A DNA stretch of 64,000 nucleotides from Elusimicrobiota bacterium. GTDB taxonomy: Bacteria; Elusimicrobiota; Elusimicrobia; UBA1565; UBA9628. Below are positions 3,001-17,242 of this stretch, in pieces (position 1 is the stretch's first letter; each line of letters opens with the position of its first letter). The translations under genes were made by a program, and so were the position numbers. The notes beneath the pieces were generated by a model. The model saw nothing but the letters and a program-made list of their open reading frames with translations, was not told the origin of the DNA and ran no database searches. The stretch covers positions 24 through 64,023 of the forward strand of contig JACPOW010000076.1 in assembly GCA_016191335.1 (NCBI GenBank), in the 5' to 3' direction.

Positions 3001-3159
3001 GGCGTCGAAGGCTTCGCGCTCGAGGGTGGCCTCCTGCAATATCTCGAGCTTGACCTCGGCGCAGAAGGTGGTGAGCGCGCTCGCGACGGGCGCGGCGAGC
3101 CCTAGCGCGAGGATCGCGCCGAGCGTCGCGGCAAGCCGTCGGGAGAGGCTCTTCTTCAT
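1..3159 (-). CDS. Large secreted/cell-surface repeat protein, C-terminus beyond the left window edge (signal peptide, FN3-like modules, FlgD-Ig-like segment)
   Basis: Absent from the ORF track because its stop lies outside the window. My reverse-strand translation from ATG 3159..3157 reads MKKSLSRRLAATLGAILALGLAAPVASA... and stays open to position 1 (1053 codons). I spot-checked the frame at 1..60, 1801..1860 and 2401..2460. It contains repeated modules such as APGAVTDLVA..TVNLTWSAPGEDG and APGAVTGLVA..VVLTWTAPGDDG (FN3-like). Its start shares one nt with the rhodanese stop (TGATG). Confidence 0.75.
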   Translation of the reverse strand, partial: MKKSLSRRLAATLGAILALGLAAPVASALTTFCAEVKLEILQEATLEREAFDASLKVNNNLPDSPLTDLRVNVFVKDEQGNPADDVFFIKIATLTNTNAIDGSGVVQSSTTAEIRWLIIPSTGAGGMLPGGKRYSVKATINGTSAGAAQSVTTFDDFITVYPQPSLKLEYVLPYEVFGDEPLTTGIEPIEPFPLGVRVTNIGYGTAKNFKIESAQPKIIDNKQALPVDFKLLGTVVRGTTIPDTLLVPFGDVAAGGVGQASWIMTTSLSGRFIEFTSTFTHAAELGGQLTSLIQSVTTYTLLRDVLVDLPGRDVTPDFLVNASLDRGAMQAMLDAGEQPNAELILESDQPTPLAVIEVPSTLSGTLGGSNASLTMTFAQGVSSNIWVHSSVPFNKTPGLVLQSARASDGRTLGAKNVWISKHFRKDDLTVHYRLNILDLTTGASTYSVNFDPTALDAAPGAVTDLVAATAAEGGTVNLTWSAPGEDGYTGHILGGRYMIENKIDLSTPFAPAFAQVNFATSTDPGDAESYALGGLVGNATTYLSLWTQDTGGGISEISNGATAYALPYPPRDLVLTAVSSVSAHAAWQAGNNALPIEYQVFAATAAGSVAASSSPYQDSFEREFTFAGLAPSTTYTVFGVARNTETLVMSPVATLGQFMTAPAEGDSTAPGAVTGLVATVAGSTQTAAAVVLTWTAPGDDGATGAITTGQLDLRYSSATADYASMEHQVLIATAAEPGAARSLPIEGLERGATYTFALRYADEAGNFSAASNMTTARTYEEIAFGSLALTTTTIRIEAPQASTLTATAVAYADLPLDARTALTTAKLALVGGVFDVLPEGTAFDPPARFTMRWLDENNDGIEDTLGLAESGLVLRKWSGSQWTPVPVLSRDEAANEITVEVSLLASLFGITGPTGTPPGLAGLIARPGAFTPNLDELTFEYRADEPVTATVEIRNSSNQLVRSFSDRVANPGLVLASENATFTGPGNGKSVRLRGGYAYYTEGETLSVYDLRDPAQPVRAAALQLTPANSGGAGESVEIVGSRLFVSIGAQLA

Positions 3160-3857
3160 CAATTCATCTCAAGCGGGTACTTCTTCTTGGTCCAGCCCAT
3201 GAGGCCGCCGGGCATTTCGTAGACCTTGTGGCCGTCCTCTAACAGCAGAACGGCGGCTTGACGGCTGCGGATCGAGGTGCGGTCGTAGACGAGGACGTCC
3301 CGGTCCTTCGGGAGGGCCGCCGCCTGGGTGGACATTCCTTCTAAAGGAAGGTTCTTGGCGCCTTTCAGGTGGCCCGCCGCGAATTCCGCCGCTGGGCGAA
3401 CGTCGAGGACGGTCAGGTCGCCCTTCTCCAGGCGTTCTTTGACGGCCTCTAGGGGCAGGCGGCCGGGGCGGGGCTTGTCGGCCTGCTTCGGGATGACGAC
3501 GGGGTAGCCTTTTTGGGCCCAGACGGCGAAGCCTTCGGCGAGGATGGAGACTTTGGGGTAGCCGAGGCCGGCGAGGCGTTCGGCGGCGCGGTCGCTCATG
3601 GGGCAGGGGTCTTCGGTGCAGTAGACGATGACGTGGTGTTCGCGGGGCCAGACGCCGGTGCCGATTTCGCCTTGGGGGACGTTGCGGGCGTTTTGGATGT
3701 GGCCTTTTGCGAAGTCGGAGGGCATGCGGACGTCGACGAGCTCGAAGGCGGCCTTGTTTAATTGCAAAGCCCGCAACTCGTCATGCCCTATGCGCGGGGT
3801 CGCCGCGTGCGCGGGTGCGCTCGTAATCCCAATCAATATTACCAGAGTTAATTTCAT
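3159..3857 (-). CDS. Periplasmic tandem rhodanese-domain protein (sulfurtransferase-like)
   Basis: 232-aa ORF with a signal-like N-terminus MKLTLVILIGITSAPAHA and two rhodanese-like halves. The first has a Cys loop (VIVYCTEDPCPMSDRAA). The second (VLVYDRTSIRSRQAA) has no Cys and is probably non-catalytic. Confidence 0.85.
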   Translation of the reverse strand: MKLTLVILIGITSAPAHAATPRIGHDELRALQLNKAAFELVDVRMPSDFAKGHIQNARNVPQGEIGTGVWPREHHVIVYCTEDPCPMSDRAAERLAGLGYPKVSILAEGFAVWAQKGYPVVIPKQADKPRPGRLPLEAVKERLEKGDLTVLDVRPAAEFAAGHLKGAKNLPLEGMSTQAAALPKDRDVLVYDRTSIRSRQAAVLLLEDGHKVYEMPGGLMGWTKKKYPLEMN

Positions 3858-4037
3858 TTCTTCACCCGTTCAGCGTTTTTAATCCGCAGTTCGTCATGTT
3901 CTGGTTTTGTATGGAGACGTCAACCCAGGCGATCAAAACGGGCAGGGGCGTCCGGCGCGCGAAGTCCGCGCTTGGAGCCATGGCGATTCGGTCGAGCCAG
4001 TACAGTTTCCTCGTTTTCATAGCTGTCTCTGCCTTTC

Positions 4038-4484
4038 TCAATCCTTTTTTTCATGCACAAAACGGGTATCGCCGCCAATGTATTGGCGCTGGGACCAAAA
4101 ACGACGCCTCGCAGCATAAGTGAGGATGCCTGGGGTGTCAAAGGAGTTGCTAAGCGCCCCATCACCATTTGTAATGCCTAACCCATTTTTCATGATGATA
4201 ACGCCGTATCTTGAATCGTATTCCCATGTCCCGCTGCTTCTAAGAATTCGATTTTGGGAAACAATCTCAGCCTCTTGAGTGAATGTCCGATCTGCAGCCA
4301 CGACAAAAGTATTCATTCCAAATGAATACTTCGCGACATATGTTCCTGGAATAGATTCTTCCGTTAGCGTCACGCGCCTTAATATCTGGTTTCCTGATTC
4401 CTCAAGTCCGCCCATTTTAAACCACACCACCACAATGACCACAATTAAAAGCCCGAATAGCACTAATCCTGATTTCTTCGGCAT
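4038..4484 (-). CDS. Candidate Rhs immunity protein, N-terminally membrane-anchored
   Basis: The ATG at 4484..4482 lies 2 nt after the Rhs TAG (4489..4487; reverse strand reads TAG AG ATG). I prefer this start to the track start 4538, which would overlap the toxin. It encodes 148 aa, MPKKSGLVLFGLLIVVIVVVWFKMGG..., with one N-terminal hydrophobic helix followed by a beta-rich soluble part. A 450-nt ORF in roughly 40% G+C DNA is unlikely by chance. The position immediately 3' of the toxin tip is typical of polymorphic-toxin immunity genes. Confidence 0.6.
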   Translation of the reverse strand: MPKKSGLVLFGLLIVVIVVVWFKMGGLEESGNQILRRVTLTEESIPGTYVAKYSFGMNTFVVAADRTFTQEAEIVSQNRILRSSGTWEYDSRYGVIIMKNGLGITNGDGALSNSFDTPGILTYAARRRFWSQRQYIGGDTRFVHEKKD

Positions 4485-4486
4485 CT

Positions 4487-7400
4487 CTAGTCGCACTGTT
4501 TTTTTCCTGGTTTCTTGTCTGGAATTTTTTCCGTCCATTTGAACTCTTGATATATATTCCGCATTGGCCCAATTGAGAACGGGCTGTTGGGTACTGCATG
4601 GAAGAAGAAGGAATTCATTCCGGCGGTGTTCGGAATCGTATATGTAACTGTTCCATCGCCGTTGTTTATGGCCGAGGCATTCGCAAACCCGCCGACCTGA
4701 GCTGCCGTGCTCCCCCAGTCTGAAGTGCTCGAATTCGTCAAGTTGTCCGCCTGCGCCAGGAAAGAATCATATTCAATACCCTTCTTAGACGTATTTCCTC
4801 CAGCCATAAATTGTTGTCTGAGATAATTTGCCGCCGGGGAACGCATCATTTCCTGCGTTTCGACGCTATTCTGATCGTAGTATCGGTAACGCTTTCCCAA
4901 TCCATATCTCCATTCAATAAAAAACCTGAGATTCGTCCATGGCGTTAATCCTAATGGGTCTGCAAGAAGAATCGGATTATTGTCCACATACACATACTGA
5001 TTGATGCTGCTGATTGGATCTTCCTGTAGGAACCTCCCAATATCCTGATAGTAATGCCTCGCCCTATAGAAGTACAGCCCTGTTTCCGTGTCGTACTCGC
5101 GCGAGGTGTACATGAACGGGTTTCCCACTTGTGACTGTGCGTAGATGCCGCTTCCCGTATCCTTGACCAATGTTCGCCCGAACGCCTGGTACTCGTAGAT
5201 TTCGACGGTATTTGCGCTTGAGTCCGTCAGCCCGTTGACGTTGCCTAAGGCGTCCGCGTGGTAGAAATAGTCAGTCATGTTTCGGCGAACAATCAGAGGG
5301 GAGTCGATGCCCGAACCGTGGGTGAACAGCGCGATTAAGTTGTTGTTGCCGTCTAATGTCGCCAAAACATCTTGGCCATCGTAGACATAGCGGGTTATGT
5401 TGCCGCCCGCGTTCTTCTCGACACGCCGCCCTGCCGGGTCGTACTTGTAACTCGCGATCGTGTAGGTTGAGGCATTGACCTGCACAAGCCGGTTGGCGCT
5501 GTCGTAGACGAAGGTCGTCGTGTGGCCGTTGCTTTGGTCCGTATTCGAGGCCATGTTGCCGTTGGCGTCGCTCGTATAAGTAAAGCTCGAGTCCGAGACG
5601 ATGCGGTTGGCGTTGTTGTAGCTGTAGCCACTGCGCTCCACGTCGGCGGTGCGATTGCCTACGGCATCATAGCTGAAGGTCTCGGCCTTGACCGGTAGGC
5701 TCGACATGGCCGGGTGGTTTGCCCCAGTCAGGCGGTTTAGCTGGTCGTAGGCGTAAGTGTGGCTGCCGCTAGCGTCAGTCATACCAGTTCGGTTGCCCGA
5801 GGCGTCGTAGCTGTAGTTGTTGAAGGCGATGGCTGTTTGATCGGCCGTCTTCTGATGCAGCACCTGAGATATCTGCCCGGCCGCATCGTAGGCGTAGCTC
5901 GTCCTGGTGCCGTTGGGGTAGTTCATTTGGGTGCGGCGACCCAGGGCGTCGTAAGTGAAGGTAACAATCTGCCCGAAGGGATTGGTGATACGCGTGACCC
6001 GGTCGAGGCTGTCGTAGGTATAGTTGAAGATTCCCCACGGCGTGGCCATGCTCGTACGGTTGCCGTTTGCGTCGTAACCGTAGCCGATCACGGCGCTGTG
6101 CCCGTTGGGTAGAGTCTGCACGATCTCGGTCACGCGATCGACGGCGTCGTAGCTCAGCACCAGGATCGTGCCGTTGTAACCGGAGGCCGTGAGCATGCGG
6201 CCCACGGCGTCATAGGTCATGGTGATGTTCCCCTCGGGGACGGACATTTGGATCAGACGGTCGAGCGTATCGTAGGTGAAATTGATGATCTGGTTGTTGC
6301 GGGTAGTGACGCTTTCAGGCCTGCTCTTGTCGTCGTAGCTGATCGAGGCGGCCTGATTGAGCGCGTTGACCGCGCTGGTCACACGAGCATTGGCGTCGTA
6401 GTTGAGCGTCGTAATATGGTTTTTCGCGTCCTTGACCGTCTTAGGCAACCGCCCCTCGCGGCCGTCATCGTACGTCACGACCGTCACGCCATTCTCAGCG
6501 TCGGTCACCTGCGTGACATTGTCCACGGCGTCATAAGCCATCGAAGTCTGCTTGTTGGCGGGGTCCTTGAAAGCCGTGGCGCGGCTCAGGTTGTCCCGAG
6601 TGGTCGTCGCGGTCCTTCCCAGTGGGTCGGTGACGCTCGTCAGTGCCCCGTTGCTGTTGTACGCCATGCTCGTCACATTGCCGAGTGCGTCCTTCATTCC
6701 CACCACATGCCCGAACGAGTCATAGCTCATGCGCGTCGAGTTGTTCTGTGCGTCCGTTATCTGAATCAAATTGCGCTTATCGTCATACCCCATGCTCGTC
6801 AGATTGTTTTTCGCGTCATAGACGCTGGTCAGGAAGTTCCCCCTTTCGTACGTCATCATCCGCCTGTGACCCAGTGCGTCGGTGCGAGCCTGATTGGCAA
6901 GGCTGCCGTCCGCGTTGTAGTTGGTCTGAATCTGCGTCCTGCGCCCGAGAGGATCGGTTATCTCGCGCGGATTCAGCTCTTCGTCGTAGAGAATGGTTGT
7001 CACGTTATCGGCGGGATCGATGATCTTGCTGAAGCGCTTGAGCCCGTTGTTCTCGATGGTCTCGTACTTCGTCGTATGCCCCAGGGCGTCCGTGACCGTG
7101 GCGCTCGAGCCGAATGACGCATACTGAACCCGGTTGACGCCCCCGTCCTCATTGGTCTCGATGACCTTGCCCGAAGCGTCGTAGACGAAATTCGTATGAC
7201 CGCCGTTAGGATAGGTGATCTGCGTCATCCGGTCCTGGGCGTCATAGGCGTAGGCCGTCTCATCGCCAATCGGGTCGCGCATCAAGATGCGGCGGCCCTG
7301 CGGATCGTACTCGAAGGCCGTGACGCGCCCCGCCCAGTCGGTGGCGCTGGTCAACCGGTCACCCGCGTAGGCGAGGTTGATGTAGCGGCCGTGGCTGTCC

Positions 7401-10400
7401 TCGATCCGGTCGACTCGCCCATCGTTGCTGCGCACATAACGGATAACGCTGCCGTTGCGGTCGGCGTACTGCGTCAGACGGTAGGCGCCAGTCGAGTTGT
7501 AGTATTCATAGGACTCCACCTCGCCCTGAGCCGTTGTGACAACGTAAGTCGGCGCCACCATGCCGCTGCCGCCGCATGAAGCAGGCCGAGGGTCCGGGCC
7601 GGGACAGATTGATAGATTTCCCCCGAGCACGACGCCTCCCGAGCCGCAACCCCCGCCGCTGCTCTCGGACCACTGGACGCCGTGATGCTCCCTGAAGCGG
7701 ACCAAGCCGCTGCACGGCACCGGCGGGGAATCTTTGGGCTTGGATATGTTTCGGTCCACGTTCACCGGGCGGGCGAACAGCGGTCCGTCGCCGTTGAGCG
7801 GCTGGAGAAGGTCGCCGATCGGGGCGTAGACCGTGTTGCTGCCGTCCGGGCCCAGCACCCCATACGTGCCGTCGGGGTTGATCCGGATATCGTAGCCGAA
7901 GTCGGCGGCCCAGCCCACGCCGTATTCTCCGCCCGAGCCATTGCCCAGATAGCGGAAGTCGAGCCCGATGCCGGGAGAGCCGCAGTTTTTCTTGAAAGCG
8001 GATTTGACGAAGTTCACAGCTCCTCTGAGGATGTCCACCAAGGCACTGGGATTGAGCGGCGGCATCGAGAGGCCCTTGTGCCCGGTCTTCGGCCCAACGG
8101 AGCACTGCGAACCGCTCTGCACTCCCGGGGTCGCCGCCGCGATGGCGACAGCCGGAGCCGCGAATGAAACACCGCCTCCGCCGCCGCCGCCCCCGCCCCC
8201 TCCGCCGCCGCTGCAGTTCATGCCGTCCAAGTTGCCCAACAGGAAGCTCAACCCGGGATAAGACCGCTCCTCCTCGTTGCCCGCCGCGCACTCGCTCGTG
8301 CCCACGACCGTCGACTGAGCCCCCTCGCAGCTCGCATGGACGAGGTAGAGCTTGACCGGCACCACCACGGACTGCCCCGGCAGGATCTCCGGGATCTCCG
8401 TGAACGGCAAAGTGACCTGCACCGCCGCGGACCCCGCGAAGTTGACCTTGACCTTGGTCGCCTTGATGAGCCCCCGGTTCGTGATCGTGAACTGGCTATA
8501 AGCGGTCTGCCCGCCCACCATCTTGATGTCGATGAGCGGCGGATCCGTCACGAGCACCGGCGCCGGCACGTCGGTCTTGAAGGTCGCCTGAAGCGCGATC
8601 GTGTACTTGTCCTGGATCGTGGTCGGCGTGACTTTCCATTCGTAGGTGACGACCGACGTGACTAATATCGCCTCGACCACGTTGGAAACGCCCGGCTCGA
8701 TGACGACGGTCCCCGACTTGGCCTGGAACCCCGACGACTCCGCCCGCCAAACGTAGTTGCCCGAGGGTATGTCGGAGAAGCTCGCCACGCCGTTGAGGTC
8801 GGCGGAGACCTTGAAGGTGATGCCCGAGACGTCGAGGCTGATGAGGGTGACGTCCGCGCCCGGTATGCCCTCGCCCTGACCTTGAGCGGTGCGCGGCTTG
8901 TCCGCGTTGATGACGCTGACCAAGGCCCCGCCCTTGCGCGTGGAGGTCACGGCCACCGAGCCCAGGATCGGCAGGGCCGGCATGTTGGCCGAGAGGACCT
9001 GGAGCAGCGGGTTGGGGTTGTAGGTCTGGTTCGGTTGGGAAATGGAAGGAGCGATGGCCAAGGTCACCGAGACGTTGCCCCCGGGCGGTATGTCGCCCAG
9101 ATGAGGCGGGCCCTGTATGGTGACGAAGGAGAGCGACGGAGTGGAGAGCTCCAGGTCGCGCCAGGTGTCGAAGCCCTGGTTGCGCAGGACGATGGTCTGC
9201 AGGCGCGTCTCCCCGCCCAGGACGCCGACCAGGAACTGCTGCGGCTCGGCAGCGGGGATGACGACCGCGGGCGAGACGGAGGCGACGACGGGCATGGTGC
9301 GGAAGTAGCCGTGCTGCTCGGTCGCGATCACGTTGACCGTGCCGCTCGAGGCGGTGGGCGAGGCGGAGATGATGACCCCGATCGGCGTCTCGGCGCCCGC
9401 GGCGAGCGAGACCGGGACGTTGTCGAGGACGACGCTCAGGCCCGTGCCCGACTCGGTCGGGGTCGTGATCGCGATCCCGGTCAAAGCCTCGGAGCCTATG
9501 TTCTTGAGGATGGTCTCGAAGCGGAAGGAGCTGTTCTGGGCGAGGGCCACCTTATAGCTCGTGTAGTTGTAGCTGAAGCCCACGATGGTGAAGGTGGACT
9601 GAGCCGAGCCGGCGATGGCCGAGGGATGGAAGGCGGAGACGGAGTACAGGCCCGCCTCGTTGGGGAGCGGGTTGAAGACCGTGGTGAAGGCGCCGGAGCT
9701 GTTCGTGACCGCGGTGAGGCGCCGGTCGTAACCCTCGGAGAGGATGCGCACCGCGACCAAAGAGTTCGCGACGGTGGAGCCGGTCGCGTCGAAGGCCGTG
9801 CCGGACAAGGTCACGCTCGAGCCCTGGTCGTAGAAGGCGAATTGAGGAGCGACCAAAGCGCGGTACGGAAGCTGCTGGGTCACGGCCTGGGACACCGCGC
9901 TCGTGAAGCCGCGGCGCCCGGGGATGCGCACGAAGCCCAAGTCGTAGGTGGGCGTGCTCACCGCCGCCTCGATGGAGAGGCTGCCGGGAGCGGAGCCCGG
10001 CACGGGGACGAGCACCGGGTCGGTGAGCAAGGAGCCGCCCGGAGGCACGGTCACGAAGAATATCTGCCGCCCCGCGACCAAGGTGATCGCAGCACCCTCG
10101 GTCTGCTTGATCCCGGCCGAGGCGAGGACCGCGCCGTCGGTCGTGCGCAGGCGGACGGTCACGTCGTCGACCGCCGCCGTCGTGGAGTTCGCGATCTGCG
10201 CGGTCACGATGTCCATGGACGCCGAGCCGCGGTTGTAGAGGCGCACGCGCACGGGGCTCAAGCCCCCCGCCAGCAGGACGTCCGGCAGGGCCTCGATCAG
10301 CGGCTGGACCGGCTCGGCCGCGGTCACGGAGAACAGGCGGGTCAAGGAGACGGCGGAGCCCGGGTCGGTCGGAAGGGCGAGGGTCAGGCGCACCGCGGCG

Positions 10401-13400
10401 GAGGCCGCGAGGTCCACCGGAGTCGCCACCACGGCCGGCAAGGTCCCGGTCTGACCGGCGGGTACGGAGATGGAGTTCGCTGTCGCAGAGGCCGCGACCA
10501 CTCCGCCCGCGATCACTTCCGCGAGAGCGGGCCCCACCGTCAACGATTGGGCCGAAGCGTTGACGGCCCTGAGCGTCAGAGCGTCGAAGAAGCCGCGCGT
10601 GAGCGTCGGCGCTGAGAGGCCCAAAGTCACGGCCGGGACCGTCGCGCGAGCCTTGGGGCCTTCCAAGCCGCGCGCGTCCACGGCGGAGACTTCGTAGATA
10701 TGCGCCCCGCTGGTGAAGCTCACGTCCTCATAGGAGGCACCCGCGTGGAGGCTGGAGCTGATGCGGCTTCCGTCGCGATAGACGCGATAAGCGACGACGT
10801 CCGCCTCGGGGGCGGTCCAGGTCAGGGACGCCGCGTCCGCGATCTTGACGGCGAGCGAGAGAGGCGCCCCGGGGGCGGCGTCCACGGAGAAGGAGATCGT
10901 CTGCGACGCCACGTTGCCCGCCTCGTCCGTCGCGGAGAGAAGGAGGCGGTAGGCGCCGTCGCGGGAGATCAGGTCCCCGGAGCGGTACGCCACGGTGCTG
11001 CCCATAGTGTCGTTGACGAGGAGGAAGCTCGACGCGGCGAGGTGCAGGTCGGAGGCCGAGACCGTGAAGGAGGAGGCGCCGACGAGCAAGGCGCCCTCGG
11101 CCACGCCCGCCGAGAGGGCCGGGGCCGTCTTGTCCAGGGTGAAGGCCACAGTGACCGTCGCGCTGTGGCTCTCGAAGTCGGTCGCCGTGATCGAGAGCGC
11201 GTGCGCGCCCTCTCCGGAGACGGTCGAGCCGGAGGCGAAGGCCTGGCCGTCGAGCAAGGAGACGATCGAGGCGGGGTTCAGGTTCGCGTCGGTCACGGTG
11301 AAGGCGATCACGAGGTCCTGAGCCGACATCTGGCCGTTCTCCACGCCGACGATCTCGATCGTCGGCGCGGCCTGGTCGAAGTCCAAAGTCGCCGTGTTCG
11401 ACGGGATGCTCTCGTTGCCGGCCGCGTCGCGGGCCGTGACCACGTAGCGGTAGGTCCCGTCGCCGGTCGGCGAGTCGATGAAGGGCGAGACCGCCGTGCG
11501 CGGCACGAGGCCGACCAAGGTCGTGATCGGGAAGGTGGCGCGGTACAGGCGGTAGTTGGCCGTGTCGGCGCCGCCCTGCGTCCAGGTGAGCTGGATCTGG
11601 CTGAAGCCGTTGAGGGAGGCGGCGAGGGACTGCGGCTCGACCGGCGGGATGGAGTCCGCGGTGCCGGAGACCGCGGCGTCCGCGCTCGCGTTGCCGGCCG
11701 CGTCGACGGCGGAGATGAGGTAGGCGTGCGGGCCGTCGGCGGCGAAGTCGGAGAAGGCGCCGGTGCGGTCCACCGCGGGAGCGACGGTCGTGATCTGGAC
11801 GGCGTCGCGCAGGACGCGGTAGTGGACCGGCAGTTCGCCCGAGTTGCCGCTCCAGGAGAGGTTGATGACGCCGCCGGGGGCGGGGTTGGCGTGGGGCAGG
11901 ATCGGCGGGTTGGGCGCCAGCGTGTCCACCACGAACGAGGTGGCGGCTCCGGTCAGGATGGAGGAGGCGTTGCCCAAGGCGTCGGTCGCGGAATAGGCGA
12001 AGAGCGCCGTGCCCTGAGGCGTATTGGCGGCGACCGTCAGTTCCGCGGTCCAGGTCCGGCCGTCGAGCGCTCCCGCTTCGCCGACGCTCAGCGCTTGAGC
12101 GGCGCCGCCGTTCGGCGTCCAGGACAAGGCCGGGGCGGAGGCGGCCGGCTCATCGAGCGTCAAGGTCACGCCCAGGGCCCCGGCGTTTATGGGAGACGCG
12201 CGCGAGAGCGCGACCTCGGCGACAGGGCCGCGCGTGTCGAGCGCCACGGTGGCGCCGGAGGTGAGGACCGTGCCCACGTTCGCGGCGAGGTCGCGTCCCT
12301 CGAAGGCGAAGCTCGCGACGCCCGGGTTCATCTCCCCCGTTACGGTCAAGGTTCCGCGCCACACCGTCCCCGTCACGCCGTCCAAGGTCTGGGCCGCGGG
12401 CGAGCCCTGGTAAGGGGTGAAGGTGAGCACCGGGACCGCGGAGAGCACCTCGCTGAGGGTCAAGGTGAACGGGTAAGCGCCGGGCCCGAGGACCGGCGCC
12501 GTCGTTAACGTCACGCGCGCGCTGGGCGCATTGCGGTCGACGAAGGCGTACGGAGCGTCCGACAAGAGGCTTTCGTTGGCCGCGCCGTCGAGCGCGGTCA
12601 CCGCGTAGAAGTACAGGTCGTCGGCCGGGGGCGTGTCCGTGAACTCGAGCGCCGTGATCCCGTTGCCCACGAGGAAGGCGTAGCCCGGCGCGGCGTCGCC
12701 GGGGATCAGGTCGAGGTCGTCGGTGGAGCGGTAGACGCGGTAGGAGGCCGCGGCCTTGCCGGGTCCCGCCTGCCAGGCGATCTTGGCCCGTCCGCCGGAG
12801 AGCAAGGCCGTCTGGACCAGGATCGGAGGGTTCGGAGCCGTCGTGGTATAGGTCAGATGAACGGGCGCCGACGGGCCGCTGAAGCCGCGCGGCTCGAAGG
12901 CGAGGGCGGTCAAGGTCAGCTCCCCCTCCGCGGGAAGCAGGACGAAGGCGCCCCAATACCCCGAGCCTCCGACCTGGACCGAGGCGAGGTCCACGCCGCC
13001 GATCTGGAGCTGGACGGTCGTCCCGACGGGTGCGGTGCCGGTGACGGTCACGGTCGCGGAGTTGGTGACGAAGCCGTCCGCCGGGGAGGAGATGACGGGC
13101 GCGGCGGGCGGGGCGTAGTTCACGGTGACGGCGCGCGCCACGGTCGCCGAGGACCCGAAGGCGTCGAACGCCGTCGCGCTGACGGTCCGCGCGCCGTCGA
13201 CGACGCCGACGAGGTTCCAGAGGACCTCGAACGGGGCCTGGGTGGACGACGCGAACAGGGAGCCGTCCACGCGGTAGTCGACGCGGACGACGCCGGTGTT
13301 GTCCGTGACCGACGGCGTCAGGTAGCGCGGGCGGGAGACTATCGCGCCCTCGTTCAGGTCGAAGGCGGAGATCACGGGCGGGACGGGGTCGAAGAGGAAG

Positions 13401-16400
13401 GTGTTCGACGCGTAGGAGCGGTTGTCGACGGCGTCCTCCGCGTAGACGCGGTAGTAGGCCGCGCCGGCGCCGACCGGGACGGTGACGGTCACGGTCGAGC
13501 CCGGGGCCTGGGCGGCGACGACCGTCGTCGAGGCGTCCGCGCCGAACAGGCCGCTCGGGGAGCTCACGAGAAGCTGACGCGCGACGCCGGAGAAGTCGTC
13601 GCTCGGGGCGGTCCAGGCCAGGTCCAACTCGCCCGCCTGGGGCCGGTAGTCCGTGAAGCGCAGGTCGGCGATCGCGGACGGCGGCGTCAGGTCGTAGGGC
13701 GCCGTCGTGAAAACGTAGGCGCTGAGCAGGCCGGAGCCGTGAGCGGCGCGCACGCGGTAGTGGTAGTCGCCGGCGACGCCCGGGAAGTCGATGTAGGCGG
13801 TCGTGGGCGTGGAGGCGATGACGACGTACTCGCCGTCGGCGGCGGTGGCGCGCTCGACGCGGTAGTCGAGGGCGGGCGTGGCCCCGGCGGAGGCGCCCCA
13901 CGTCAGCTCGACGAGGCCGGTCTGGCGGTCGACGGCGGCGGAGACGGCGCCGGGCGCCGCGGGCGGCTCGGCGAAGGAGGCGACGCGCAGGGGGGCCGAG
14001 GCGGAGCTCTCTCCCCGGGCCTCGAACGCGACGGCGGTCAGGAGGTAGTCCCCCCGGCCGGGGAAGGCGGCCTCGGGCAGGCTCCACTGGCCGATCACGT
14101 CGACGGCCGAGGCGCCGAGGAAGGCGGCGTCGGCGTAGACGCTGACCCCGGTGAGCAGCGGGGCGTAGCCCTGGACCGTGAAGGTCGTCGCGAGCGTCGA
14201 GAAGCCGTCGGACGGGACGAAGACCGTGGGCGGGACCGGCGTCGAGTAGGCGACGGTGACCGAGCGGGAGATCGACGTCTGGTTGCCGTCGTCGTCCGTG
14301 GCGACGGCGGCGAGCGTATGGGGACCGTCGGTCTCGCTCCGGACGTCCCAGAAGAACTGATGGCTGACGGTCGTCGTCGCGCGCGCGATGCCGTCCACCT
14401 CGAAGCGCACGGATGCGGAGGTGAAGTCGTCGGAGGCGTTGGTGATGACCGTGTACGGGCGCGACAAGGTCTCGCCCTCCGCGGGCTGGACGAAGGACAC
14501 CGAGGGCGGCGTCGCGTCGAAGCGGACGGACTGGACGCCCGAGAGCGGGCTCTCCCCGCCGAGCTCGCCGAGGGAGGAGACGGTGTAGAAGTAGAACGCC
14601 GAGGCGCCGGGGAAGTCCGCGTAGGCCGTGTCCGTCGTGCCGCCGAGAAGGGCCAGGTTTCCAACCTCGGTGCCGCGGTAGACGCGGTAGGAGGCCGGGG
14701 CCGGCTCCGGCGCGGTCCAGGACAAAGTCACCTTCGCCTCGGCGCGGCTGAACAGCGCCGTCACGTTGAAAGGAGGCTGCAGCGCGCCGCTCGAGGTGCG
14801 CGTCGAGCCGGACGGGGAGAAGTCGGAGAGCGTGAGCCCCAGGTTGTAGGCGCGCACGCGCGCGGTGTAGTCGGTGCCGGGGGCCAGGCCCATGGCCGTG
14901 TAGGTCGAGCCGCGGTGATAGAAGCCGACGGGCAGCGGCGTGCTGACGTGGGAGGCGAAGCCGTCGGTCGACAGCGACAGCTCGTAGCTCGCGTCGGGGC
15001 CGTTGCCGCCGTCCGTCCAGGACCAGGTCACGCTGGTCTCGAACACCTCCGCGGCGGCGACCGCGCCGGGGACGGCGGGGTCCGCCGCGGACCAGGCGCA
15101 GCTGTACTCGCCCGCGATCAGCAGGTTGACGCCGGCCACGCACAGGAACCGGCTTCCCGCCGGCGTCAGCCCCGCGTCTATGTAGGAAGTCGTGTTGACG
15201 GAGGCGAAAGGCGGGGTGTCGGTGGAGGTCGCCAGGAAGTAGGCGGTGGCGCCTTGCGCGGCGTTCCAGGACCACGCGATCGAGGACACGCCGAGGGCCT
15301 GGCCCGCGAAGCCGGAGGGCGGCGGCGGGCCGACATTGCCGGTCGGGCCGTCCCAGGTGAACGTCGTCTCGGCCGGGGCGGCTTCGTGGCCGACGAAGTC
15401 GCCGGTGAGCGCCAGGATCCGGTAATGATGGCCCTGCACCAGCCGCTCGTCGAGGCGGCCGAAGTTCCCGTCGTTGACGCTCGAGATGCGCACCGACCAC
15501 ACGAGGTCGCTCGGGATCCCCATGAACTCCGAGTACGCGAACTCGGGGGCGACCGCGGCCGTGGTCCAGCCCGGCAAAGAGGAGTCCCACCACAGGCCAG
15601 CGTCGGTGTCCTGGAAGGCCAGCTTGACGTCCTGATTGACGCCGTTGGCGTCCGACGCGGAGCCCTCGACGGCCGGCAGGGCGGCGATGGTGGAGCCCGC
15701 GACGGGGAAGGACACCCCGACGGCCGGGGCGACGGTGTCGAGGCCGATCGTGAAGTCGATGCCGGAGGCGGACGCGCCCGGGGCCAAGGAGACCGGCGCG
15801 AAGGCGTGATAGAAGCCGATCGGCGTCGAGGGGTCGATGGAGTCCGGGTCCTCTCCGAGGAAGGCGCCGATCGCGTAGTCGCCGGGGGTCTCGATGGCGA
15901 CGGAGAAGGGCACCGACGCGCCGCCGGTCGAAGGGACGGCGACGAGGAAGGTCGCCGCGTTGAAGCCGTCCGCCGAGGCGACGATGGTCACGGTCGAGCC
16001 GAAGGGCGCACCCCCCTCGACGACCACGGAGCCCTCGAGCGTCCCTTCCGAGAGCACGGCGCAGGAGGGAAGGCCGTCGGAGCCGGGGACGGACTGCGCG
16101 CCGACGAAGGCGCCCGGCGTCGAGCCGTACACGACCCAGGGCGCGTCGCCCGCGTCGAGCGCGATGCCGGTCATGTTGAGGGACTCGTCGGTGCGGGGGT
16201 AGCCCGGCTCGAGCCCTCCGAAGCGGTCGTAGGACCAGACCGCCGCCGTGTCAGAGGAGCGGCCCAGGACCCAGGGGCTCCCGTCGGAGGCCAACGCGAT
16301 GCTCCGTCCGTTCGAGGCGGTCTCCGCGGTGTTGTGCCAGTAGCGCTGGAGCTCGACGGTCCCGTTCATGTCGAAGCGGAACAGGGCCTGCTGCCGCTGG

Positions 16401-17242
16401 TCTCCGCAACCGGGGAACAATTGGGAGGCCGTGACCCAGACCTTGTCCCCCGCCGCGATCACGATGCCCGGCTCGATCTCGTCGAGCGTCGCGTACGCCG
16501 ACCCGCGATACACCGGGAAGCCGTTCCGCGGGTTCCCGTCCTGGTCGTAGCGCCACAGCGCCAGGTCGTACGCCGTCGCGCCCGGGGCCAGGCTGACGCC
16601 CGCCGACCAGACGTCGCCGGAGGAGTCCACCGCGACGGAGAGGGCGCCGTCGAGCACGCCCTCCGCGCGGCGCTGGTATTTAGGGAAGCCGGACGACATG
16701 GAGCCGTCCGGCTCGAAGCGCCAGAGGGCGAAGCGGATGCTGCCCGTCGAGTCGATCACCTGGGGCGCCGTGACCCAGGCGCGGCTGGAGCCGTCCACCG
16801 CGACGCCGCCCGAGTAGATGTCGTGGTCGCCGTACACCGCCGCCGAGCTGATCAAGGTGAGCCCGTCGGCGGAGACGTGCCAGACGCCGAACCCGGCGGG
16901 GCCGCCGTCGCTGGCGCCGCCGCTCACCCAGGCGTCGCCGTCCGGGCCGGAGGCGATGGCGAAGCTCGCGTCCTGCGCGGCGCTGGACAAGGAGACCTCT
17001 CCGGCCAGGGAGCCGCCGGAGTCGAAGCGGCGCAGCGTGAACGAGCCGGCCGCGTCCGAGACGACGACCCACTGCCGTCCCGACGCGTCGCGGTGGAAGG
17101 CGTGGGAGCCGTTCTGCGCGCGCGCGGGCGCGGCGAGGAGGAGCAGAGCCGCGGCCGCCGGGAGGATCAGGGACGCGAAAAAAGCCGGGACCCTCCCTCT
17201 CGGGGGGCGCTCGGCGCGGACGGCGGGCACGGCAAACGGCAT
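4487..17242 (-). CDS. Giant secreted Rhs/YD-repeat polymorphic toxin (4251 aa)
   Basis: Single uninterrupted ORF. It begins with a signal peptide (..LLLLAAPARA/QNG) and SBBP-like repeats (DAWVSGG, RAWVTAP, DVWSAGV, KVWVTAS, SPWVLGRS). Many Ig/FN3/CARDB/carboxypeptidase-regulatory-like modules follow, then a 13-Gly run. Dozens of YD repeats come next (YDAQDRMTQITYPNGGHTNFVYDASGKVIE, YDALGRRTQMNYPNGTRTSYAYDAAGQ...). The canonical core end is YRARHYYQDIGRFLQEDP..NNPILLADPLGL, followed by a 152-aa tail. Confidence 0.95.
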   Translation of the reverse strand: MPFAVPAVRAERPPRGRVPAFFASLILPAAAALLLLAAPARAQNGSHAFHRDASGRQWVVVSDAAGSFTLRRFDSGGSLAGEVSLSSAAQDASFAIASGPDGDAWVSGGASDGGPAGFGVWHVSADGLTLISSAAVYGDHDIYSGGVAVDGSSRAWVTAPQVIDSTGSIRFALWRFEPDGSMSSGFPKYQRRAEGVLDGALSVAVDSSGDVWSAGVSLAPGATAYDLALWRYDQDGNPRNGFPVYRGSAYATLDEIEPGIVIAAGDKVWVTASQLFPGCGDQRQQALFRFDMNGTVELQRYWHNTAETASNGRSIALASDGSPWVLGRSSDTAAVWSYDRFGGLEPGYPRTDESLNMTGIALDAGDAPWVVYGSTPGAFVGAQSVPGSDGLPSCAVLSEGTLEGSVVVEGGAPFGSTVTIVASADGFNAATFLVAVPSTGGASVPFSVAIETPGDYAIGAFLGEDPDSIDPSTPIGFYHAFAPVSLAPGASASGIDFTIGLDTVAPAVGVSFPVAGSTIAALPAVEGSASDANGVNQDVKLAFQDTDAGLWWDSSLPGWTTAAVAPEFAYSEFMGIPSDLVWSVRISSVNDGNFGRLDERLVQGHHYRILALTGDFVGHEAAPAETTFTWDGPTGNVGPPPPSGFAGQALGVSSIAWSWNAAQGATAYFLATSTDTPPFASVNTTSYIDAGLTPAGSRFLCVAGVNLLIAGEYSCAWSAADPAVPGAVAAAEVFETSVTWSWTDGGNGPDASYELSLSTDGFASHVSTPLPVGFYHRGSTYTAMGLAPGTDYTARVRAYNLGLTLSDFSPSGSTRTSSGALQPPFNVTALFSRAEAKVTLSWTAPEPAPASYRVYRGTEVGNLALLGGTTDTAYADFPGASAFYFYTVSSLGELGGESPLSGVQSVRFDATPPSVSFVQPAEGETLSRPYTVITNASDDFTSASVRFEVDGIARATTTVSHQFFWDVRSETDGPHTLAAVATDDDGNQTSISRSVTVAYSTPVPPTVFVPSDGFSTLATTFTVQGYAPLLTGVSVYADAAFLGASAVDVIGQWSLPEAAFPGRGDYLLTAVAFEARGESSASAPLRVASFAEPPAAPGAVSAAVDRQTGLVELTWGASAGATPALDYRVERATAADGEYVVIASTPTTAYIDFPGVAGDYHYRVRAAHGSGLLSAYVFTTAPYDLTPPSAIADLRFTDYRPQAGELDLAWTAPSDDFSGVARQLLVSSPSGLFGADASTTVVAAQAPGSTVTVTVPVGAGAAYYRVYAEDAVDNRSYASNTFLFDPVPPVISAFDLNEGAIVSRPRYLTPSVTDNTGVVRVDYRVDGSLFASSTQAPFEVLWNLVGVVDGARTVSATAFDAFGSSATVARAVTVNYAPPAAPVISSPADGFVTNSATVTVTGTAPVGTTVQLQIGGVDLASVQVGGSGYWGAFVLLPAEGELTLTALAFEPRGFSGPSAPVHLTYTTTAPNPPILVQTALLSGGRAKIAWQAGPGKAAASYRVYRSTDDLDLIPGDAAPGYAFLVGNGITALEFTDTPPADDLYFYAVTALDGAANESLLSDAPYAFVDRNAPSARVTLTTAPVLGPGAYPFTLTLSEVLSAVPVLTFTPYQGSPAAQTLDGVTGTVWRGTLTVTGEMNPGVASFAFEGRDLAANVGTVLTSGATVALDTRGPVAEVALSRASPINAGALGVTLTLDEPAASAPALSWTPNGGAAQALSVGEAGALDGRTWTAELTVAANTPQGTALFAYSATDALGNASSILTGAATSFVVDTLAPNPPILPHANPAPGGVINLSWSGNSGELPVHYRVLRDAVQITTVAPAVDRTGAFSDFAADGPHAYLISAVDAAGNASADAAVSGTADSIPPVEPQSLAASLNGFSQIQLTWTQGGADTANYRLYRATFPITTLVGLVPRTAVSPFIDSPTGDGTYRYVVTARDAAGNESIPSNTATLDFDQAAPTIEIVGVENGQMSAQDLVIAFTVTDANLNPASIVSLLDGQAFASGSTVSGEGAHALSITATDFESHSATVTVAFTLDKTAPALSAGVAEGALLVGASSFTVSASDLHLAASSFLLVNDTMGSTVAYRSGDLISRDGAYRLLLSATDEAGNVASQTISFSVDAAPGAPLSLAVKIADAASLTWTAPEADVVAYRVYRDGSRISSSLHAGASYEDVSFTSGAHIYEVSAVDARGLEGPKARATVPAVTLGLSAPTLTRGFFDALTLRAVNASAQSLTVGPALAEVIAGGVVAASATANSISVPAGQTGTLPAVVATPVDLAASAAVRLTLALPTDPGSAVSLTRLFSVTAAEPVQPLIEALPDVLLAGGLSPVRVRLYNRGSASMDIVTAQIANSTTAAVDDVTVRLRTTDGAVLASAGIKQTEGAAITLVAGRQIFFVTVPPGGSLLTDPVLVPVPGSAPGSLSIEAAVSTPTYDLGFVRIPGRRGFTSAVSQAVTQQLPYRALVAPQFAFYDQGSSVTLSGTAFDATGSTVANSLVAVRILSEGYDRRLTAVTNSSGAFTTVFNPLPNEAGLYSVSAFHPSAIAGSAQSTFTIVGFSYNYTSYKVALAQNSSFRFETILKNIGSEALTGIAITTPTESGTGLSVVLDNVPVSLAAGAETPIGVIISASPTASSGTVNVIATEQHGYFRTMPVVASVSPAVVIPAAEPQQFLVGVLGGETRLQTIVLRNQGFDTWRDLELSTPSLSFVTIQGPPHLGDIPPGGNVSVTLAIAPSISQPNQTYNPNPLLQVLSANMPALPILGSVAVTSTRKGGALVSVINADKPRTAQGQGEGIPGADVTLISLDVSGITFKVSADLNGVASFSDIPSGNYVWRAESSGFQAKSGTVVIEPGVSNVVEAILVTSVVTYEWKVTPTTIQDKYTIALQATFKTDVPAPVLVTDPPLIDIKMVGGQTAYSQFTITNRGLIKATKVKVNFAGSAAVQVTLPFTEIPEILPGQSVVVPVKLYLVHASCEGAQSTVVGTSECAAGNEEERSYPGLSFLLGNLDGMNCSGGGGGGGGGGGGGVSFAAPAVAIAAATPGVQSGSQCSVGPKTGHKGLSMPPLNPSALVDILRGAVNFVKSAFKKNCGSPGIGLDFRYLGNGSGGEYGVGWAADFGYDIRINPDGTYGVLGPDGSNTVYAPIGDLLQPLNGDGPLFARPVNVDRNISKPKDSPPVPCSGLVRFREHHGVQWSESSGGGCGSGGVVLGGNLSICPGPDPRPASCGGSGMVAPTYVVTTAQGEVESYEYYNSTGAYRLTQYADRNGSVIRYVRSNDGRVDRIEDSHGRYINLAYAGDRLTSATDWAGRVTAFEYDPQGRRILMRDPIGDETAYAYDAQDRMTQITYPNGGHTNFVYDASGKVIETNEDGGVNRVQYASFGSSATVTDALGHTTKYETIENNGLKRFSKIIDPADNVTTILYDEELNPREITDPLGRRTQIQTNYNADGSLANQARTDALGHRRMMTYERGNFLTSVYDAKNNLTSMGYDDKRNLIQITDAQNNSTRMSYDSFGHVVGMKDALGNVTSMAYNSNGALTSVTDPLGRTATTTRDNLSRATAFKDPANKQTSMAYDAVDNVTQVTDAENGVTVVTYDDGREGRLPKTVKDAKNHITTLNYDANARVTSAVNALNQAASISYDDKSRPESVTTRNNQIINFTYDTLDRLIQMSVPEGNITMTYDAVGRMLTASGYNGTILVLSYDAVDRVTEIVQTLPNGHSAVIGYGYDANGNRTSMATPWGIFNYTYDSLDRVTRITNPFGQIVTFTYDALGRRTQMNYPNGTRTSYAYDAAGQISQVLHQKTADQTAIAFNNYSYDASGNRTGMTDASGSHTYAYDQLNRLTGANHPAMSSLPVKAETFSYDAVGNRTADVERSGYSYNNANRIVSDSSFTYTSDANGNMASNTDQSNGHTTTFVYDSANRLVQVNASTYTIASYKYDPAGRRVEKNAGGNITRYVYDGQDVLATLDGNNNLIALFTHGSGIDSPLIVRRNMTDYFYHADALGNVNGLTDSSANTVEIYEYQAFGRTLVKDTGSGIYAQSQVGNPFMYTSREYDTETGLYFYRARHYYQDIGRFLQEDPISSINQYVYVDNNPILLADPLGLTPWTNLRFFIEWRYGLGKRYRYYDQNSVETQEMMRSPAANYLRQQFMAGGNTSKKGIEYDSFLAQADNLTNSSTSDWGSTAAQVGGFANASAINNGDGTVTYTIPNTAGMNSFFFHAVPNSPFSIGPMRNIYQEFKWTEKIPDKKPGKKQCD
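4490..4945 (-). other. C-terminal toxin domain (152 aa) of unrecognised family
   Basis: Sequence after DPLGL: TPWTNLRFFIEWRYGLGKRYRYYDQNSVETQEMMRSPAANYLRQQFMAGG...WGSTAAQVGGFANASAINNGDGTVTYTIPNTAGMNSFFFHAVPNSPF...KKQCD. I see no HNH, deaminase, ART, RNase or peptidase motif. This is the lowest-G+C coding DNA in the window. Confidence 0.6.
4946..7980 (-). other. Rhs/YD-repeat shell region ending at the DPLGL motif (start approximate)
   Basis: YD-repeat periodicity is visible from roughly ..YRLTQYADRNGSVIRYVR.. to DPLGL, which is encoded at 4960..4946. G+C here is visibly lower than in the upstream two-thirds of the gene. Confidence 0.7.
8171..8209 (-). repeat. 13-codon poly-glycine tract (GGN)13 between the adhesin-like region and the Rhs core
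   Basis: The reverse strand reads TGC AGC GGC GGC GGA GGG GGC GGG GGC GGC GGC GGC GGA GGC GGT GTT, giving C S G13 V. Confidence 0.95.
17117..17242 (-). other. Sec-type signal peptide of the Rhs protein (aa 1-42)
   Basis: MPFAVPAVRAERPPRGRVPAFFASLILPAAAALLLLAAPARA: a basic n-region, a hydrophobic core and an A-x-A cleavage motif. Confidence 0.6.

Follow-up and report, generated by a model that had tools for sequence, protein, structure and literature searches.

An uncharacterised Rhs tip domain and its membrane-anchored partner from an Elusimicrobiota genome: a candidate periplasm-acting toxin/immunity pair

A 64,000-nucleotide stretch of an Elusimicrobiota genome (GenBank assembly GCA_016191335.1, contig JACPOW010000076.1; the whole stretch is hereafter called the window) codes for a very long Rhs protein, whose C-terminal tip raises a threefold question: what does this tip do, where does it act, and is the small gene that follows it the cognate immunity gene? 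A preliminary description, made from the sequence, had the Rhs shell ending in DPLGL at 4960..4946 with a tail of 152 amino acids (aa) behind it, and placed a 148-aa open reading frame (ORF) with an N-terminal transmembrane (TM) helix two nucleotides past the TAG stop. The first statement was confirmed base for base and the second by an ATG at 4484 and a helix at residues 6-24. Rhs tips with immunity cassettes are a well-known type of system. Judged by sequence comparison, the toxin domain and the lipoprotein or TM-anchored partner are both absent from Pfam 2025, NCBIfam 2026, the PDB and the searchable literature, and the pair emerges as a well-supported, sizeable candidate family with a testable envelope-directed mechanism. 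The features that carry the argument are:

4487..17242, minus strand: Rhs/YD polymorphic toxin ORF, 4251 aa plus stop, with Pfam RHS_repeat
4946..4981, minus strand: PxxxxDPxGL autoproteolysis motif NNPILLADPLGL, residues 4088-4099, read directly
4960..4946, minus strand: DPLGL of the Rhs ORF, read directly
4490..4945, minus strand: 152-aa C-terminal candidate toxin domain (TPWTNLRF...KKQCD) of an uncharacterised family
4489..4487, minus strand: TAG stop of the Rhs ORF
4038..4484, minus strand: 148-aa immunity candidate with a basic N-terminus, a TM helix at 6-24 and a predicted ~124-aa extracytoplasmic domain
4484 (ATG) and 4040..4038 (TGA), minus strand: start, 2 nucleotides past the Rhs TAG, and stop of the partner ORF
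4038..5113, minus strand: exchangeable cassette of low guanine-plus-cytosine content (GC), made up of the final ~55 residues of the Rhs core (beginning at MYTSREYD) together with DPLGL, the toxin and the immunity gene

The tail (~17 kDa, isoelectric point 9.0) has 17 close homologues in a search of 5.8 billion proteins (44-73% identity, E down to 2e-39), all of them metagenomic and named at source only as 'RHS repeat-associated' or 'hypothetical'. A profile search of 1.84 billion cluster representatives, clustered at 50% identity, extended the family to 654 such representatives at E<=1e-3, 142 of them at E<=1e-30. Since the tail has these 17 close homologues and 654 profile matches, the Rhs ORF is a real gene. 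Neither single sequences nor profiles of the tail found a match in Pfam-A (2025), NCBIfam (2026), PHROGs or PDB sequences. The preliminary description had seen no nuclease, deaminase, ADP-ribosyltransferase (ART), NADase or peptidase in the tail, and hmmscan against Pfam and NCBIfam likewise returned no such family. Library matches to CFSR or Cadherin_5 on the 'NGDGTVTYTI' hairpin and to SMC1 were dismissed as noise, as was a PHROG 'endolysin' match at the noise level of E 0.04. The family motifs AQVGGF, GPMRNI and FQWTE led to no paper in the searchable literature. On these comparisons, the tail is a member of a real, large family absent from the curated libraries searched, and the earlier suggestion of a possibly new family holds for those libraries and for the searchable literature.

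This family spans at least 8 phyla of uncultured bacteria; species-representative genomes place it in Nitrospira, Terriglobia/Acidobacteriota, Chloroflexi, Pirellulales/Planctomycetia, Rokubacteria, Ignavibacteriaceae, Obscuribacterales and a cyanobacterium. In all but ~5 of 134 full-length matches the domain ends between a few and ~36 residues before the C-terminus, and several distinct pre-toxin linkers precede it across the family. A search of metagenomes for the tip on other carriers, proposed as a check by the preliminary description, was productive: most carriers are Rhs/YD proteins, comprising plain Rhs, DUF6531-Rhs and a Tc-toxin-like SpvB/FG-GAP/TcdB_mid_N/Rhs protein, alongside short stubs with a Sec signal. 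One protein (P0104) combines a signal peptide with a Pro/Asn/Asp-rich linker and has no Rhs repeats by Pfam; its C-terminal tail is unusual in being Trp/Tyr/Asp-rich. Another (P0136) is atypical in carrying a 324-aa unknown domain C-terminal to a divergent toxin domain. Some stand-alone toxin/immunity pairs lie in phage-like surroundings, namely a tape-measure protein and an S24 repressor at metagenome locus L001 and a TerL nuclease at L007:6160-7134. This context is not general, because the family has no match in INPHARED phages (tblastn) or IMG/VR (scan); PLSDB plasmids (tblastn) gave none either.

Is the downstream ORF the partner of this domain? An ORF of 130-171 aa directly follows the toxin, often overlapping its stop, in seven of the seven metagenome loci retrieved around close toxin homologues (L001, L002, L004-L008), and these ORFs are homologous to the window ORF or among themselves. 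The window protein is 55% identical to its counterpart at L005, 36% to that at L004 and 33% to that at L006 (E 1e-47 to 1e-6, small-database BLAST), and the L001 and L007 partners form a more distant subgroup. A hidden Markov model built from the metagenome-locus ORFs placed the partner family immediately downstream of the toxin in nine of 13 genome loci from Nitrospira, Acidobacteriota, Chloroflexi, Planctomycetota and Ignavibacteria. The small ORF is a real gene, because it has a 72%-identical homologue and a 55%-identical one situated after the closest toxin homologue; in this one close pair identity tracks between the two genes (toxin 73%, partner 55%). The window protein reads PGTY...F..AADxTF.QE...GTW.YD, and the motifs common to the family are GTY...L.L..DGTF.QE...G.W.YD. 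The partner accompanies the toxin domain across carriers, including orphan and stand-alone forms, and apart from it no small ORF is conserved beside the toxin. The preliminary description had taken the next gene as the cognate partner, and this recurrence across carriers agrees with it. From sequence and synteny, the tail and the downstream ORF probably constitute a genuine toxin/immunity pair.

The overlap of the toxin and partner frames suggests translational coupling. An in-frame ATG at 4538 is a candidate earlier start, which would add 18 mostly basic residues on the cytoplasmic side and leave the topology unchanged. At this point (window 4482..4541, minus strand), the toxin codons K-W-T-E (AAA TGG ACG GAA) yield an out-of-frame ATG-GAC-GG ('MDG'), 18 codons early, and a homologue (P0019) was called from the equivalent 'MDG' start. 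We do not count the shared 'MDG' as evidence for a start at 4538, as it probably arises from the overlap with the toxin's conserved K-W-T-E codons.

Tip and partner also travel together as a unit of distinct composition. The GC is 0.42-0.54 at ~3800 to 5150, compared to 0.56-0.60 in the YD shell and 0.65-0.76 in most of the region, and MYTSREYD (nucleotide 5113) marks the upstream edge of this low-GC island, in which the tip and partner gene have a GC of about 0.43-0.50 against 0.70. An orphan module (P0013) from a different metagenome, located downstream of a complete Rhs-TNT gene at L004, begins at the same MYTSREYD and is 56% identical to the window protein over 207 aa, through DPLGL into the toxin. 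The same tip occurs on different carriers, and the tip with its partner gene is a classic exchangeable Rhs tip/immunity cassette that retains a piece of the core for recombination. At the other end, between the immunity gene and a rhodanese-like gene (3159..3857), lies a 52-codon ORF (MKTRKLYWLDRIA..., window 3862..4020, minus strand) where the GC returns to the level of the genome; no evidence of homologues supports it, and it is unlikely to be a gene.

The second part of the question, the site of action, is addressed foremost by the partner's anchor. The window protein opens with basic residues (MPKKSG), after which residues 6-24 are hydrophobic (19-residue Kyte-Doolittle maximum 2.7), that is, a single TM helix with a positive-inside N-terminus. 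Across the partner family, 11 of 19 members have a lipobox-like Cys behind the hydrophobic N-terminal stretch (LAGC, LTGC, LVAC, VIAC, LLGC, LVGC and others), and most of those without a lipobox, including the window protein, carry an uncleaved TM helix. In polymorphic toxin systems, secreted, TM or lipoprotein immunity proteins are exceptions that mark toxins acting at the cell surface (Zhang et al. 2012, PMC3482391). The soluble domain of the partner had sub-threshold matches to NlpE_N in five of 15 members (best E 1e-3), to the lipocalin-like GH43_C in 3, to DUF5004 in 2 and to DUF4923, and a weak one to the lipoprotein 3LHN (E 0.019); together, these suggest a small lipocalin-like barrel.

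On the toxin side, the stand-alone short forms carry Sec signal peptides. Further, in about half of the toxin family a Cys at ~51 is accompanied by a Cys or CxC at the C-terminus, and members tend to have both or neither (66/14/11/44, odds ratio 19, Fisher p = 2.5e-13, a statistic that ignores phylogenetic non-independence). This co-variation suggests a structural disulfide in an oxidising compartment; the window toxin itself lacks Cys51 and has only Cys151. The partner's lipobox and TM anchors, the signal peptides of the stand-alone forms, the Cys pair and the colicin M-type structural neighbours described below are the reasons for which we consider an extracytoplasmic site of action likely, as the preliminary description had proposed in pointing to an envelope or periplasmic target.

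The same evidence bears on a rather different proposal, in which the tail is a cytoplasmic toxin of an unrecognised type (a nuclease, NADase, ART or translation inhibitor) and the membrane partner an accessory, for example in export or assembly. In its favour stand the cytoplasmic action of most Rhs tips described so far and the cytoplasmic location of most immunity proteins (PMC3482391), as well as the basic character of the tail (pI 9.0); an RNase, too, could in principle be built on an alpha+beta domain containing His, Glu and Arg. Nevertheless, nuclease, ART, NADase and deaminase families and motifs are unmatched, the partner tracks the toxin domain rather than the carrier with no alternative conserved small ORF beside it, and both the signal peptides and the correlated Cys pair point outside the cytoplasm. 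We therefore regard a cytoplasmic toxin as improbable.

A Transglut_core2 (PF13369) gene lies directly upstream of short signal-peptide toxin forms at two unrelated metagenome loci (L001:4845-5756 and L008:619-1614), and the two encoded proteins are 54% identical over 187 aa. This protein may serve the shell-less stand-alone versions as a conserved third component, such as a processing protease or helper. The toxin/immunity pair of L007 is preceded, at L007:2321-2965, by an ORF with a weak likeness to Phospholipase A2 and by additional small ORFs, and this locus may be an array of several toxin cassettes.

What the toxin attacks was approached through its predicted fold. AlphaFold2 models reached a mean predicted local distance difference test score (pLDDT) of 76.8 with an 18-sequence alignment and of 88.0, with a predicted template-modelling score (pTM) of 0.81, with 71 diverse sequences, and their secondary structure is identical: one helix, one short strand, a pair of helices, one strand, another pair of helices, a long beta-hairpin, a conserved loop and the last strand follow each other in this order. 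The HMMER and Foldseek checks that had been suggested for the tip gave no confident match to a described toxin family, and the only borderline one is to colicin M (ColM). ColM-family chains alone occupy the top 8 Foldseek ranks for the first model (pLDDT 77) and the top 10 for the second (pLDDT 88), with pectocin M2, pectocin M1, ColM and syringacin M among them and PaeM ranking lower. The best match, pectocin M2 (4n58; E 7.7e-3, probability 0.84), improved with the better model. As the matched proteins' N-terminal domains are unrelated and only the ~150-aa lipid II phosphatase domain is common to them, the signal must lie in that domain. Searches of the PDB chains found no peptidoglycan hydrolase, lipase or lysozyme-like fold, TelC was not among the matches, and the BFVD viral structures yielded nothing for the toxin model.

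Three circumstantial parallels favour this lead. First, the toxin domain of ~145 aa is comparable to the minimal ColM catalytic domain, residues 122-271 (PMC8469651). Second, the most conserved loop of the toxin lies between the last two long strands, and in our own reading of the sequences the ColM signature motif lies at the equivalent loop. Third, the ColM immunity protein Cmi consists of an N-terminal TM helix and a periplasmic domain (PMC5821083), and in DUF943, the partner of the ColM-like effector DUF3289 of type VI secretion systems (T6SS), the TM helix spans 7-26 and the periplasmic domain 27-157 (PMC11148199); the window partner shares this ColM-type layout of an N-terminal TM helix with a ~110-130-aa periplasmic domain. 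The toxin fold may thus be a very distant relative of the ColM catalytic domain, in which case the mechanism would be less new than the sequence. We treat the relationship as a lead and not a classification, and rate it somewhat short of an even chance.

As an aside on ColM itself, its residues 119-162 (HYLWGNGAERSV...), which form the helical N-terminal portion of its catalytic domain, match the CW_7 muropeptide-binding repeat of the Cpl-7 lysozyme (5i8l, E 3e-4; 4cvd). A loosely similar motif, F-L-x-D-W-x-x-G-x-G-x-x-x-R-x-Y, stands at the equivalent position of the toxin family, with no match to the CW_7 profile.

The conservation pattern speaks to the kind of activity. Across 135 sequences, the invariant or near-invariant residues are N5, G15, Y23, S36, R43, Y59, A64, T68, T80, Q83-V-G-G86, N95, G98, T101, N106, G109, S112, F113, H116, G126, Q133, F135, W137 and E139, with conserved acidic residues at positions 32 and 67; ~15 of the invariant residues are polar. 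Because the domain is soluble and has many invariant polar residues, it is more likely to be an enzyme than a pore former, and we hold an enzymatic action to be somewhat probable. Three specific assignments were rejected. An ART (R-S-E or H-Y-E, reading 'STA' as STS and Q133...E139 as QxE) does not fit in spacing and order and has no profile match; a Ser-His hydrolase (S112-x3-H116) and a C-terminal Cys-His peptidase are both unlike known catalytic geometry, and the C-terminal Cys co-varies with Cys51 instead.

A non-enzymatic toxin, either a pore former or ionophore or a stoichiometric binder of lipid II, would also suit a membrane-anchored immunity protein, which is typical for pore-forming toxins. 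Binding is conceivable too, as the predicted N-terminal helix-strand-helix-helix loosely resembles the CW_7-matching 'WGNGxxR' region of ColM. However, the tail has no hydrophobic segment (19-residue Kyte-Doolittle maximum 0.55), no hydrophobic or amphipathic helical hairpin and, as the preliminary description had already noted, no glycine-zipper pore motif. Its compact alpha/beta fold with many invariant polar residues is at odds with such an action, and the immunity proteins of pore formers are usually polytopic whereas the window partner has a single anchor and a globular domain. This makes a non-enzymatic toxin very improbable.

We accordingly favour an enzymatic toxin/immunity cassette that acts in the periplasm, and envisage its working as follows. 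The Rhs protein, with its signal-like N-terminus, would be exported. The tail would be enclosed in the YD shell and freed by aspartyl autoproteolysis between DPLGL and the following T, the motif for which is present; shell encapsulation and autoproteolytic release at DPxGL are established for Rhs/TcC proteins. Having entered the periplasm of a neighbouring cell, the tail would act as an enzyme on a substrate in the envelope, on the outer face of the inner membrane; our best guess is the cleavage of a lipid-linked wall precursor, such as lipid II as by ColM, with His116, Glu139 and Tyr, Arg, Gln and Asn residues serving in place of DxYDx5HR. The partner, set N-in/C-out in the inner membrane (lipid-anchored in many homologues), would shield the producer, its lipocalin-like domain presumably binding and blocking the toxin where the substrate sits. 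Taken as a whole, with the ColM-like attack as best guess, this scheme seems to us about evenly balanced between right and wrong. For its last element, the attack on lipid II or another lipid-linked wall precursor in the manner of ColM, our confidence is tentative, and an alternative envelope component as the substrate is to be entertained just as tentatively.

Besides the two qualifications of the Cys pair given above, several observations weigh against this scheme. In structure, no match to 350,542 PDB chains reached E<=1e-3 for the toxin models, and the ColM-family matches, at E 7.7e-3 to 0.5, have TM-scores of 0.23-0.35 with a root-mean-square deviation of ~9 Å. In sequence, hhalign of 135 toxin-family members against a ColM catalytic-domain alignment built from a homologue search (local, global and low-mact modes) gave a probability of 0.14%, hmmscan found no match to Colicin_M (PF14859) for 18 toxin members at E<=10, and no member of the toxin or partner family matched DUF3289 (PF11692) or DUF943. 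Neither DxYDx5HR nor the metal-binding Asp is in the family alignment, where the window reads SFFFHAVPNSPFSIGPMR; the nearest counterpart, Y115-H116...D120-R121, is half conserved and becomes N120-S121 in the window. In context, the partner ORF went undetected by the profile in four of the 13 genome loci, and the window ORFs scanned (ten neighbours, covering part of the window) include no T6SS, TcA or other delivery genes for entry into a target periplasm. Finally, toxicity, immunity and binding are candidate properties of the pair, read from sequence and synteny.

Many of these points would be accommodated by a periplasm-acting pair with a new enzyme fold and another envelope substrate (peptidoglycan glycan or peptide bonds, a phospholipid, a lipoprotein, or precursors of lipopolysaccharide or the outer membrane), the likeness to ColM being fortuitous. 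All the evidence for an extracytoplasmic toxin/immunity pair applies to it equally, the sequence-level ColM tests are negative with TM-scores of only ~0.3, and the invariant Ser112, His116, Glu139, Asn106 and Gln133 are unlike the Asp-rich metal site of ColM. Conversely, in each of two independent models the ColM family alone fills the top Foldseek ranks, Foldseek detected neither a peptidoglycan hydrolase nor a lipase or lysozyme-like fold, and GxSxG, HxKxxxxD and Cys-His peptidase motifs are all missing from the toxin family. A new fold of this kind is possible, and we would put it forward only with reserve. A bolder version of the favoured periplasmic scheme holds that the tail founds an unnamed, widespread class of periplasmic enzymes, either a deeply diverged ColM branch or an envelope activity new to interbacterial toxins, neutralised by a new family of lipocalin-like lipoproteins; in the ColM-branch version lipid-linked wall precursors would be cleaved by a catalytic set apparently free of the Asp motif (His116, Glu139, Tyr23, Arg43, Gln133, Asn106, Ser112). 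This we consider doubtful.

The carrier has the hallmarks of an Rhs/YD polymorphic toxin: multiple YD/RHS repeats make up the shell (RHS_repeat, PF05593, E 3e-67, 9 stretches in the Pfam scan), and PxxxxDPxGL stands C-terminally, ahead of the tip. The same scan found fn3, Big_7, Big_13, Big_3_3 and CarboxypepD_reg, and no PAAR, VgrG or DUF4150, in this protein. Its remaining features are:

17117..17242, minus strand: Sec-type signal-like N-terminus, residues 1-42, ending ...LLLLAAPARA before QNG, from the sequence and Kyte-Doolittle analysis
4946..7510, minus strand: YD-repeat shell, ~residues 3245-4099 (approximate boundaries), terminating in PxxxxDPxGL

The signal-like N-terminus has a 19-residue Kyte-Doolittle maximum of 2.36 at residue 20, and the cleavage site we infer would fall between LLLLAAPARA and QNG. 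After it, residues ~50-380 (window 16100..17100, minus strand) contain repeated 'D/S-G-x-x-W-V' units, which suggest a beta-propeller-like module not recognised by Pfam. Gly/Cys-rich linkers at residues ~3000-3240 connect the stalk of immunoglobulin (Ig)-like and CarboxypepD_reg domains to the YD shell, and 13 glycines stand in a row at residues 3012-3024 (window 8171..8209, minus strand). A family scan of part of the window identified ten other large ORFs as housekeeping or transport proteins; the neighbours include transporters of the major facilitator superfamily and the ATP-binding cassette type, an FGGY kinase, an enoyl-CoA hydratase, a radical SAM protein and a 2-oxoacid dehydrogenase E2. 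As this E2 protein is 87-88% identical to proteins of Elusimicrobiota metagenome-assembled genomes, the window comes from a high-GC member of the Elusimicrobiota, which we take to be diderm.

Many unclassified polymorphic-toxin tips are already known to specialists; as one of many, this one would be of moderate surprise until activity is shown. Still, it is uncommon for Rhs toxins to have extracytoplasmic targets and lipoprotein immunity, and this family, which is confined to uncultured environmental phyla, is large enough to merit a name. As antibacterial leads, enzymes destructive to lipid II or to other envelope precursors have a practical interest. If the ColM link is true, the lipid II-degrading fold would reach far past the proteobacterial bacteriocins onto Rhs carriers, and would be shown to work with a different catalytic set; if it is false, the tail would be a compact (~145-aa) envelope toxin of uncharacterised chemistry that comes with its own inhibitor protein.

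Among known systems, the locus resembles the Rhs/YD systems (WapA/WapI, the RhsA/RhsB effectors and TcC-type cocoons). It shares with them the YD shell, PxxxxDPxGL, a GC-distinct variable tip cassette, an adjacent small partner gene, and orphan tip/immunity modules that keep the last ~55 core residues. Unlike them, the window carrier starts with a Sec-type signal, the ~3200 aa ahead of its shell include Ig-like, Fn3 and CarboxypepD_reg domains, its locus is without PAAR, VgrG or T6SS context in the ORFs scanned, and its tip family is unclassified. The immunity candidate, membrane- or lipid-anchored and predicted to be extracytoplasmic, is likewise exceptional by the survey of Zhang et al. 2012 (PMC3482391).

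The ColM family (PF14859; ColM, pectocins M1/M2, syringacin M and PaeM), periplasmic lipid II phosphatases, supplies the sole PDB structures with a Foldseek signal. It resembles the window toxin, as modelled, in a ~150-aa alpha/beta domain with a half-open sheet and the most conserved loop before the last strand, in a periplasmic action (probable for the window), and in that its immunity protein Cmi joins a TM anchor at the N-terminus to a small periplasmic domain (PMC8469651, PMC5821083). In contrast, the window family has no sequence or profile similarity to ColM, no DxYDx5HR and no Asp metal ligand, at a TM-score of ~0.3; its carrier is an Rhs protein whereas ColM is a TonB-dependent bacteriocin, and its partner looks lipocalin/NlpE-like whereas the Cmi-type fold is YebF-like.

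The DUF3289/DUF943 T6SS pair (Kanarek et al. 2024, PMC11148199) is a precedent for a ColM-like toxin recognised by structure alone and toxic in the periplasm. The layout of DUF943 (TM 7-26, periplasmic 27-157) is almost identical to that of the window partner (TM 6-24, 148 aa). The two pairs differ in that hmmscan gives no match to PF11692 or DUF943, in their carriers, and in their hosts, with DUF3289/DUF943 in Enterobacterales and Aeromonas and the window family in uncultured Elusimicrobiota, Nitrospira, Acidobacteriota and others. Finally, TelC/TipC of the LXG type VII secretion system of Streptococcus intermedius differs from the window pair in fold, carrier and secretion system; it offers a parallel in combining an extracytoplasmic polymorphic toxin directed at lipid II with a membrane-anchored immunity protein whose domain is extracellular (PMC5555719, PMC6193138).

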